From: Escherichia coli
Lineage (GTDB): Bacteria; Pseudomonadota; Gammaproteobacteria; Enterobacterales; Enterobacteriaceae
Strand: one strand, 5' to 3'
Length of the DNA stretch: 64,000 nucleotides
Assembly (NCBI RefSeq): GCF_045037415.1
Contig: NZ_CP173438.1
Below, piece after piece: positions 53,701 through 56,700 of this stretch (within the stretch, counting starts at the first letter, position 1; every line of letters starts with the position of its first letter). The position numbers are program-made.

Positions 53701-56700
53701 TTTTAGCCGCATTAATGAGTATGGGTGGCGCAGTCGGTGTTGCCGCCAGTCTGGCAACCGCTGGCGCATTAACCGGTCACGATGTCACCGTTTTACTGCC
53801 CGCGATGTATTTAATGGGCAACCCGGTGCAAAATGTCGGTCGCTGCCTGGGGACAGCCGAAGTGAATGCCAAATATTACCCGCATATCATTACGGTCTGC
53901 GTGATTAACGCATTGCTGTCGATCTGGGTTATGCAGCTTATTGTTTAACAAGGAGTTACCATGATTGATTATACCGCAGCCGGTTTTACCCTGCTGCAGG
54001 GAGCGCATTTGTATGCGCCGGAAGATCGGGGAATTTGCGATGTCCTCGTCGCTAACGGCAAAATTATCGCCGTTGCCAGTAATATCCCTTCTGACATTGT
54101 ACCGGACTGCACGGTTGTCGATCTCAGCGGGCAGATCCTCTGCCCAGGTTTTATTGATCAACACGTCCATTTGATTGGCGGTGGCGGCGAAGCAGGTCCC
54201 ACGACGCGCACGCCGGAAGTGGCGTTAAGTCGTCTGACGGAAGCAGGCGTCACGTCAGTGGTTGGTCTGCTGGGCACCGACTCTATCTCTCGCCACCCGG
54301 AATCCCTGCTCGCCAAGACCCGTGCGCTCAATGAAGAAGGCATCAGCGCCTGGATGCTGACCGGCGCTTATCATGTCCCTTCCCGCACTATTACGGGTTC
54401 CGTGGAAAAAGACGTGGCGATTATCGATCGCGTGATTGGCGTGAAATGCGCCATCTCTGATCACCGTTCTGCCGCACCGGACGTTTATCACCTGGCTAAT
54501 ATGGCGGCGGAATCCCGCGTTGGCGGTTTGCTCGGCGGTAAACCTGGCGTCACCGTGTTCCACATGGGCGACAGCAAAAAGGCGTTACAGCCTGTCTATG
54601 ACCTGCTGGAAAACTGCGATGTGCCGATTAGCAAGTTGCTGCCGACCCACGTTAACCGCAACGTTCCGTTGTTTGAGCAGGCGCTGGAGTTCGCGCGCAA
54701 AGGCGGCACCATCGATATCACCAGCAGCATTGACGAACCAGTCGCCCCTGCCGAAGGTATTGCCCGCGCCGTTCAGGCGGGTATTCCGCTGGCACGCGTC
54801 ACCCTCAGCTCCGACGGCAACGGTAGCCAGCCGTTCTTCGATGACGAAGGGAATTTAACCCATATCGGTGTTGCCGGTTTTGAAACGTTGCTGGAAACCG
54901 TGCAGGTGCTGGTCAAAGATTATGATTTCAGTATCAGCGATGCCCTGCGCCCGCTCACCAGTAGCGTAGCCGGTTTCCTTAACCTGAGCGGGAAAGGCGA
55001 AATTCTGCCAGGCAATGACGCAGACTTACTGGTCATGACGCCAGAATTACGCATTGAGCAGGTATACGCTCGCGGCAAGCTGATGGTCAAAGACGGCAAA
55101 GCCTGCGTGAAAGGAACGTTTGAAACGGCATAAACGGTTGTCAGCCGCCCGAATGGACGTAGAATGCCCGCAAGGGCGGCTGACAGAGTAAAACGTAATG
55201 GATGACTGTGGTGCGGTTTTGCATAATATTGAAACTAAATGGCTTTATGATTTTCTGACCCTGGAAAAATGCCGCAATTTTTCCCAGGCAGCAGTCAGTC
55301 GCAACGTCTCGCAACCGGCATTCAGCCGCCGCATCCGTGCGCTGGAACAGGCGATTGGCGTTGAATTGTTTAACCGCCAGGTGACGCCGCTGCAACTCTC
55401 GGAACAAGGTAAAATATTCCATTCGCAGATCCGCCATCTGTTGCAACAGTTAGAGAGCAACCTTGCAGAACTCCGTGGTGGCAGCGATTACGCGCAACGC
55501 AAAATTAAAATAGCCGCTGCACACTCTCTTTCCCTCGGGCTGTTACCGTCCATTATCAGCCAGATGCCGCCGCTCTTTACCTGGGCAATTGAAGCTATTG
55601 ATGTCGATGAAGCGGTCGATAAACTGCGTGAAGGGCAAAGTGACTGTATTTTTTCCTTTCACGACGAAGATTTGCTGGAAGCGCCGTTTGACCACATTCG
55701 CTTATTTGAATCTCAATTGTTCCCCGTTTGCGCCAGTGACGAACACGGAGAAGCACTTTTTAACCTCGCGCAGCCACACTTTCCGTTACTGAATTACAGC
55801 CGCAACTCCTACATGGGGCGATTGATTAATCGCACCCTGACGCGCCACAGTGAGTTAAGTTTCAGCACCTTTTTTGTCTCTTCGATGAGCGAGCTTTTAA
55901 AGCAGGTTGCCCTCGACGGCTGTGGGATTGCCTGGCTACCGGAATACGCCATCCAACAAGAAATTCGCAGCGGGCAGCTCGTTGTACTGAATCGGGACGA
56001 ACTGGTGATCCCGATTCAGGCCTATGCATACCGGATGAATACCCGCATGAATCCAGTTGCCGAACGCTTCTGGCGTGAACTGCGCGAGCTGGAGATTGTG
56101 CTTAGCTGACATTCTCCAGCGTCGCACTGCGCCAACCGCCATTATCCCAGACCAGATCAAACGTTAGCGATTCATCGTCGTGATACAGCATTATCTCAAG
56201 GCTGATCGCCAGAGTGTGGCAGTACGCTTCTTTCAAATTAACCTGTAACGCCGCAATCCGTGGCTCATGAAATAACAGTGCAGAACGCAGCTGACGGCAA
56301 TACCAGCTCTGGAGATGTTTGTCGCTCGGGTTATGCACTTGCCACTCGGGCATGCCTGAAACAAGTAATGACGGTAATGCCGAATGAGGAGAATTAAAAA
56401 GAGTGAGGAGATCGCTGCATACTGATTTACGCAGCGGTGACGTTTTATTGCCTGAAATTTCAGGTAAAACAGCCTGAAGTGATTGGCGCATCATTTTGCG
56501 CACTCCTGACGTTTAGCAACATATGCGGCTTGCCCTGAACACCGGGCACCACTGTATTGATGCTCATTTTCCATAGCCATTCCCTTTTGTTCATTACATC
56601 CATGTCAGTCTGAGACAGGCCTGAATCCTGTCAGCAAAGTATAAAACCTTACTTGCCTATGAATATCTACTGACTTTTCAGGAAAAAAGTCATGATTTGA

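Follow-up and report, generated by a model that had tools for sequence, protein, structure and literature searches.

Overlaps between neighbouring genes are frequent in Escherichia coli, where a census counted 663 overlapping adjacent gene pairs, 75 of them convergent, and put the convergent ones down to movement of the stop codon (PMC4161906). With regard to transcript ends, Rho-dependent E. coli transcripts carry their steady-state 3′ ends at stable stem-loops devoid of a U tract, some of them inside downstream coding regions, with a mild enrichment of C over G past these stem-loops and with tails that are trimmed by polynucleotide phosphorylase (PNPase) and RNase II (PMC6061677). Between convergent E. 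coli genes, hairpin elements that bear no resemblance to intrinsic terminators have been described as pause sites, and head-on and trailing polymerase collisions there terminate transcription in both directions (bioRxiv 10.1101/2022.10.23.513370). Here we describe the tail-to-tail junction of hypT and iraD in a stretch of 64,000 nucleotides of E. coli DNA (contig NZ_CP173438.1 of assembly GCF_045037415.1, hereafter the window), where an 8-nt overlap of the two coding regions represents one allele of a polymorphic junction and lies at the centre of a quasi-palindrome, which both mRNAs could fold into a stem-loop. The two genes and their overlap are:

55198-56109, plus strand: hypT (also yjiE or qseD), coding for a LysR-type hypochlorite-responsive regulator of 303 amino acids, with the stop codon TGA at 56107-56109 (open reading frame, Pfam, RefSeq).

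56102-56494, minus strand: iraD (yjiD), coding for an RssB anti-adaptor of 130 amino acids, K-12-type allele, with the stop codon TAA at 56104-56102 (open reading frame, Pfam, PDB 6OD1 chain B, RefSeq).

56102-56109, both strands: the 8-nt coding overlap of hypT and iraD, TTAGCTGA (read from the sequence, RefSeq).

Within the plus-strand sequence CTGGAGATTGTGCTTAGCTGACATTCTCCAGC (56090-56120), the hypT reading frame ends as ATT GTG CTT AGC TGA (protein end IVLS) and that of iraD, on the minus strand, as GAG AAT GTC AGC TAA (protein end ENVS). HypT shows the HTH_1 and LysR_substrate domains and IraD the GPW_gp25 domain (Pfam), and chain B of PDB 6OD1 aligns over its whole length with IraD residues 17-130, with two substitutions and an identical C-terminal tail. 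The gene names and the positions of both stops given in the initial annotation agree with the sequence, with the list of open reading frames and with RefSeq, and the 8-nt overlap that it reported at the 3′ ends of this convergent pair is likewise annotated by RefSeq in K-12 MG1655 (iraD 4556993-4557385, plus strand; hypT 4557378-4558289, minus strand) and in Esc9 (NZ_OZ369289.1, 3890438-3954437, reverse complement), which is identical to the window at 64,000 of 64,000 bases. Since each mRNA must run through its own stop codon, the hypT and iraD mRNAs are complementary over at least 8 nt, and to that extent the argument that transcription of one gene has to enter the other is logically sound. 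The overlap is real but ordinary, being already part of the reference annotation, and it belongs to a common class, not a rare one. Among the 12 convergent junctions of the window it is the sole overlapping pair, followed in tightness by kptA/yjiJ with a gap of 12 nt, while several others have gaps of 33-48 nt. Chance estimates are hardly applicable to it, because the junction is inherited and does not constitute a statistical signal.

The history of this overlap can be reconstructed because alternative alleles survive. Passages of Homeier et al. 2010 (PMC2878320) describe the yjiD-yjiE junction as carrying either the 20.3-kb GimA (ibeA) of B2 extraintestinal pathogenic E. coli (ExPEC), a 342-bp pptE remnant, or neither, and K-12 as GimA-negative; the same passages make no mention of the overlap of GimA-negative strains or of a palindrome. 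No GimA or pptE sequence was found between iraD and hypT in the window, where the junction is direct. Across 5,426 complete E. coli genomes, the K-12-type junction was present in 4,876, the hypT/nhaC junction at the side of GimA (GimA-positive strains) in 247, the remnant junction in 266 and the 3′ end of pptE in 512. In 513 of these genomes the two genes stand apart, the distance being 20 kb with GimA and about 0.4 kb with the remnant, and each side has an intergenic hairpin of its own. The 8-nt overlap is thus the GimA-negative (K-12-type) allele of a known polymorphic junction and, with about 10% of E. coli genomes lacking it, it is dispensable and not fixed. The allelic difference extends to the protein. 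B2-type IraD has 127 amino acids and ends in WHRTMPQ, whereas the 130 amino acids of the K-12 type have a different end. In the alignment, the TAA that closes B2-type iraD is missing from the K-12 type, whose reading frame continues into hypT.

The overlap is embedded in a structure that had escaped the initial annotation:

56084-56125, both strands: a quasi-palindrome of 42 nt centred on the overlap (inverted-repeat search and RNA folding).

The arms of its main hairpin, 56088-56099 (GCTGGAGATTGT) and 56109-56120 (ACATTCTCCAGC), are complementary at 11 of 12 positions and are extended by outer pairs between 56084-86 and 56123-25. They enclose a loop of 9 nt (GCTTAGCTG, 56100-56108), which contains the iraD stop and has the hypT stop at its 3′ edge. 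The last codons of both genes form the two arms (CTG GAG ATT GT in hypT and CTG GAG AAT GT in iraD), so that the stop of either mRNA can be enclosed by the same stem-loop. Over 51 nt, the predicted folding energy is -24.3 kcal/mol (z -3.65) on the hypT-sense strand and -26.8 kcal/mol (z -5.32) on the iraD-sense strand, and 0 of 200 dinucleotide shuffles was as good in either case. When segments of 51 nt were slid over all 64 kb and scored by the weaker of their two strands, the overlap hairpin reached rank 8 among the two-strand hairpins of the window, in the top 0.08% of segments. The stronger hairpins that were mapped are mostly intergenic (the iadA-hypT spacer, the fimH/gntP gap and a cluster in the 515-nt yjjV/yjjW gap), and a further stronger site, 23386-23436, lies at the lgoD/opgB junction and extends into the end of opgB. 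The strongest hairpins of the convergent junctions fimH/gntP, lgoD/opgB and yjjV/yjjW are similar in strength to the one at the overlap, which is G+C-rich and encoded on both strands at the boundary of a convergent pair. The tight kptA/yjiJ junction was considered as a similar coding-embedded hairpin and was discarded, its candidate being no better than shuffles (z -0.89).

No U tract follows the stem on its 3′ side on either strand, and no A tract is present, the flanks being ACTGCGCC and GCAGTTCA (ACTGCGCCAACC on the plus strand, GCAGTTCACGCC on the minus strand). A consensus scan of 55000-57300 found 0 canonical intrinsic terminators, with 2.9 expected. The earlier statement that no terminator lies between the genes is therefore correct as far as canonical intrinsic terminators are concerned, and has to be amended in that a strong hairpin covering both stops was overlooked. 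A search of 54900-57400 against Rfam returned no family, only a chance match to a small nucleolar RNA (E = 0.27).

Comparison with the GimA-positive avian pathogenic strain APEC O1 shows how the two alleles differ in this region. The end of hypT consists there of the same GTGCTTAGCTGA-CATT and then diverges, at the following site:

56110-56113, no strand assigned: CATT, the point of divergence of GimA-positive genomes, a copy of which flanks GimA on both sides (comparison with APEC O1 and with a remnant strain).

Beyond this site hypT is convergent with nhaC across a gap of 86 nt that holds a 10-bp hairpin (about -21 kcal/mol), and at the other side iraD is convergent with ptsP (pptE) across a gap of 47 nt with a 12-bp hairpin (about -21 kcal/mol). 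In the same 51-nt segment centred on the hypT stop, the folding energy is -9.0 kcal/mol in the GimA-positive and -11.4 kcal/mol in the remnant allele, versus -24.3 kcal/mol here. The location of the GimA boundary, immediately after CATT and within the right half of the palindrome, together with the copies of CATT at both sides of GimA, might suggest a role of the palindrome as DNA, whether as a target of recombination or insertion, by which this boundary was set, or as a site of protein binding. We regard this as the least likely reading and as highly improbable. A repeat of 4 nt is weak evidence, the right arm is missing from the GimA-positive allele, and no binding-site motif was identified at the palindrome. 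Homeier et al. 2010 (PMC2878320) describe GimA as lacking integrase or mobility genes in its vicinity and as having a phylogeny consistent with vertical descent and deletions.

The main rival to a function of the hairpin at the RNA level is that overlap and palindrome are a neutral scar, that is, by-products of the way in which the junction arose (through loss of the intervening DNA and of the original iraD stop, possibly with template switching at a quasi-palindrome) that play no role in 3′-end formation, the transcripts having diffuse Rho-dependent ends and being decayed. Such an origin is possible, although we hold it for rather doubtful. It agrees with the abrupt jump in divergence at the junction, hypT DNA being 96% identical between the alleles and iraD DNA 78%, and with the finding that convergent overlaps usually come from stop-codon movement (PMC4161906). 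On the other hand, a scar does not readily account for a hairpin whose rank on both strands is within the top 0.08% of the window and which no dinucleotide shuffle equals, nor for its placement where the alternative allele has two intergenic hairpins. Furthermore, the terminal codons CTG GAG A-T GT, shared by two proteins that are unrelated, are unlikely to have arisen without selection or a templated event.

We tentatively favour, with a confidence that falls a little short of even, the interpretation of the hairpin as a shared 3′ stem-loop, protective or pausing, of both mRNAs, with termination taking place downstream by Rho or by polymerase collision. What we say of RNA ends, including hairpin formation in vivo, the definition of the 3′ ends and the mode of termination, draws on the sequence and on precedent. 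In the allele of the window the 3′ ends of hypT and iraD abut, with iraD extending by a few codons to the first in-frame stop, inside hypT. In the proposed model, the stem-loop at the overlap would replace the two separate intergenic hairpins of GimA-positive strains, serving as a U-less 3′-end element for both genes. RNA polymerase would pass the stem-loop and terminate downstream, either through Rho acting on the untranslated antisense RNA or through head-on collision with another polymerase, and 3′-to-5′ exonucleases would then trim the transcripts back to the hairpin. The mature hypT and iraD mRNAs would remain complementary over some 40-50 nt, a by-product of compact 3′-end formation and not a dedicated regulatory switch. 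The Rho option appears more plausible for hypT, in view of the tract that follows the hairpin:

56126-56205, plus strand: a stretch richer in C than in G (24 C, 15 G) just downstream of the hairpin in the hypT sense, a candidate Rho-utilisation region.

The C-over-G bias of these 80 nt places the hypT-sense strand at the 91st percentile of the window.

Several observations, on expression and RNA ends as well as on sequence variation, weigh against this proposal. The iraD-sense side past the hairpin has no C-over-G bias (35th percentile), and U and A tracts are missing at the hairpin. Termination by collision is most effective at highly expressed pairs (bioRxiv 10.1101/2022.10.23.513370), and hypT and iraD are both weakly expressed, the iraD mRNA being undetectable by Northern blot in the wild type (PMC5574718). 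As both arms lie within translated sequence, ribosomes will melt the stem-loop on translated mRNAs. The Term-seq and Rho tables of Adams et al. 2021 (PMC7815308), searched by gene name and by MG1655 coordinates 4,556,9xx-4,557,4xx, contain no 3′ end and no Rho-dependent region for iraD, hypT, yjiE or idlP (the iraD leader peptide gene), a gap that may reflect low expression and that would also be expected of a neutral scar. The supplements of SMRT-Cappable-seq make no mention of the hypT/iraD genes, and Park et al. 2017 do not deal with the 3′ end of iraD.

Sequence variation bears on the same question. In a search with a 70-nt junction query, 2,663 matching genomes were identical and the rest differed at 1-3 or more positions, about 250 of these non-identical matches covering the hypT part only. 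A small sample of variant haplotypes (n=6) showed substitutions at 56076, 56100 (loop), 56117 (stem), 56121 (bulge), 56129 and 56131; five of the six, with changes in the loop, the bulge or beyond the stem, kept their folding energy, which speaks for the proposal. The C-to-A change at 56117, in the stem and synonymous in iraD, weakens the hairpin to -17.7 and -20.2 kcal/mol, and exact copies of this variant occur in 592 genomes, O157:H7 among them. Although widespread, the hairpin is thus not under strict protection, and the fixation of a stem-weakening variant is what a neutral origin would allow.

Outside E. coli, one genome of each species with HypT was scanned, and iraD adjoined hypT only in Escherichia. 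The junction proved labile there, with overlaps of 8, 8 and 21 nt in some lineages and a gap of +426 nt in another, again in line with a scar. E. whittamii has the same direct junction, with the TAA missing and an overlap of 21 nt, and is devoid of the hairpin (-4.2 kcal/mol), a further point against a 3′-end function and in favour of the neutral origin, whereas Escherichia sp. E1V33 carries the remnant, with the +426-nt gap. In Escherichia sp. MOD1-EC7003 the TTAGCTGA junction is kept and iraD is reduced to about 22 codons. The fold there is -19.6 kcal/mol in the hypT sense versus -13.8 kcal/mol on the other strand, because two transitions in the right arm give G-U pairs on the hypT-sense strand only, which weakly suggests, in favour of the proposal, that with iraD dead the hairpin has been kept in the hypT sense. 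Only the K-12-type allele of E. coli has the strong palindrome. The idea that a hairpin at this place is a general trait of the hypT 3′ end was discarded, as no comparable single stem-loop was found in Citrobacter, Salmonella, Pluralibacter and Hafnia, where hypT appears to have a different convergent neighbour a few bases away.

As to that neighbour, an apparent minus-strand gene was seen in Citrobacter, Salmonella arizonae/diarizonae, Pluralibacter and Entomohabitans, with a stop about 5-10 nt from that of hypT; translated by eye, its product ends in FIDSTASLVRAAIRWYESWPDT. The region downstream of hypT thus appears to vary across the Enterobacteriaceae, with hypT repeatedly found in very tight tail-to-tail arrangements. 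The 8-nt overlap was also seen in a contig of 605 nt labelled Bacillus coahuilensis m4-4 (NZ_ABFU01000118.1), whose protein identity to the E. coli junction is 100% in the hypT part and 98% in that of iraD, and which is almost certainly an E. coli contamination of that assembly.

The initial annotation had proposed the overlap as a site of potential antisense interference. In a regulatory coupling of this kind, induced iraD transcription would enter hypT, or the reverse, and depress expression of the partner through colliding polymerases or through cleavage of the duplex RNA by RNase III, so that RpoS stabilisation would be tied to the hypochlorite response. Such coupling is in our opinion unlikely. 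Excludon-type cis-antisense regulation, as known from Listeria and others, involves long overlapping 3′ untranslated regions. HypT, in turn, is controlled post-translationally, by methionine oxidation, which counts against interference at the transcript level. The absence of an efficient canonical terminator would be favourable to such coupling, as would the complementarity of the mRNAs over at least 8 nt, and probably 40 nt or more, and the strong induction by azidothymidine (AZT) of the iraD unit (ytiC 260-fold, ytiD 33-fold, idlP 18-fold and iraD 14-fold; PMC11228462). Nevertheless, nothing on a mutual relation of iraD and hypT (yjiE), on reciprocal expression or on antisense RNA of hypT turned up in the literature searched, and the junction hairpin is expected to limit read-through and not to promote it. 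Moreover, in about 10% of E. coli genomes, ExPEC B2 lineages among them, both genes are kept at a distance of 0.4-20 kb, so coupling is not required for either gene. More specifically, the palindrome of GimA-negative E. coli might act as a bidirectional collision or pause site, such that strong induction of ytiC-ytiD-idlP-iraD by replication stress, guanosine tetraphosphate (ppGpp) or stationary phase would measurably alter the 3′ ends, the stability or the level of the hypT mRNA, or the reverse. Translation of the last codons might in addition gate the hairpin, CsrA-repressed and translated iraD mRNA thus obtaining different 3′ ends. We consider this reading improbable. If it were true, RpoS stabilisation would be connected with the hypochlorite response in an allele-specific manner, a connection that GimA-carrying ExPEC B2 strains lack.

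The leader peptide gene belongs to the transcription unit of iraD:

56491-56574, minus strand: idlP, the open reading frame of the iraD leader peptide, which overlaps the iraD start by 4 nt (RefSeq, PMC5574718).

It is co-induced with iraD by AZT (PMC11228462). Some additional observations concern this side of the junction. The K-12-type and the B2/GimA-linked iraD represent two deeply diverged alleles, with about 75% amino-acid identity. In B2 strains uxuR follows iraD after only 414 nt, so that yjiC, ytiC and ytiD are missing there, and an unannotated idlP-like open reading frame (MEYEHQPSGVRQPGQDTDATKRQECA) is still found upstream of iraD. In the strain studied here yjiC (DUF2686, about 57202-57952) is annotated as a frameshifted pseudogene, the longest remaining open reading frame being 57277-57855 (192 amino acids). 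On the other side, hypT is annotated as a shorter gene of 855 nt in the O157-type strain 20R2R and in APEC O1, and is frameshifted in EH2252, so the integrity and the start site of hypT differ between pathotypes. A short QseD isoform has reportedly been seen in enterohaemorrhagic E. coli (EHEC), which the 855-nt annotations would echo.

Other hairpins were observed in the vicinity of the pair and elsewhere in the window. The strongest of the window lies in the iadA-hypT spacer (55138-55186), which is bounded by the stop of iadA at 55133 and the start of hypT at 55198. It has a 13-bp stem, UUGUCAGCCGCCC...GGGCGGCUGACAG, with -30.5 kcal/mol (z -5.2) and no U tract, and it overlaps the best sigma-70-like match of the region, TTGTCA-16-TAGAAT (55138-55165); it could be the end of the yjiHG-iadA transcript, occlude a hypT promoter, or both. 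A perfect inverted repeat of 11 bp with a loop of 11 nt (55987-56019, CTGAATCGGGA / TCCCGATTCAG) lies within hypT, 85-115 nt beyond the stop of iraD, and its folding energy in the iraD sense is -19.2 kcal/mol (z -3.2). E. whittamii, Escherichia sp. MOD1-EC7003 and the K-12-type and remnant alleles of E. coli carry this repeat, Escherichia sp. E1V33 has a weakened version, and Citrobacter and Salmonella lack it despite a similar protein sequence. The repeat may be due to chance or may form a second obstacle to read-through from iraD. Finally, the 515-nt gap between yjjV and yjjW (about 5700-6330) holds a cluster of five or more strong two-strand hairpins, with folding energies from -21 to -30 kcal/mol and about 80-200 nt between them, which looks like an array of the REP/BIME type (repetitive extragenic palindromes and bacterial interspersed mosaic elements).

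The overlap as first reported matters little, since it is annotated, one of many, and absent in a tenth of strains. Two modest points are added here, namely that it is tied to the GimA polymorphism and that a two-strand hairpin is embedded in the coding sequence. The former provides a clear and datable example of the birth of a convergent overlap, in which the intervening DNA and the original stop were lost and iraD obtained a new C-terminal tail, the very tail seen in the solved IraD-RssB structure. If it is true that the stem-loop defines both 3′ ends, the junction would represent a compact natural bidirectional 3′-end element inside coding sequence, for which the GimA-positive, the remnant and the O157 stem-variant alleles offer natural controls.

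All together, the locus can be placed among the described systems. As a convergent overlapping gene pair of bacteria it shows no essential difference from the others, consisting of two bona fide genes on opposite strands that have a few 3′ bases in common, one of which, iraD, has lost the TAA of the B2 allele and runs to the next stop, the stop codon having moved. With respect to the GimA locus polymorphism, as described in passages of Homeier et al. 2010, it is the same junction, and the window shows the GimA-negative pattern, as does K-12 MG1655. It resembles excludon-type regulation in having convergent genes with potentially overlapping transcripts, and differs from it in that the overlap is missing in about 10% of strains. 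With Rho-dependent 3′ ends (Dar and Sorek 2018) it would have in common the stable stem-loop without a U tract, followed on the hypT-sense strand by the C-over-G-rich stretch, whereas the iraD-sense side has no such bias. Overlapping bidirectional terminators (Ju et al. 2019; Wang et al.) also have a non-canonical hairpin at a convergent boundary, usable both ways, and the predicted overlap of the hypT and iraD transcripts would similarly be about as long as the hairpin; unlike in those systems, the hypT/iraD element consists wholly of coding sequence, holds both stop codons and lies between weakly expressed genes.

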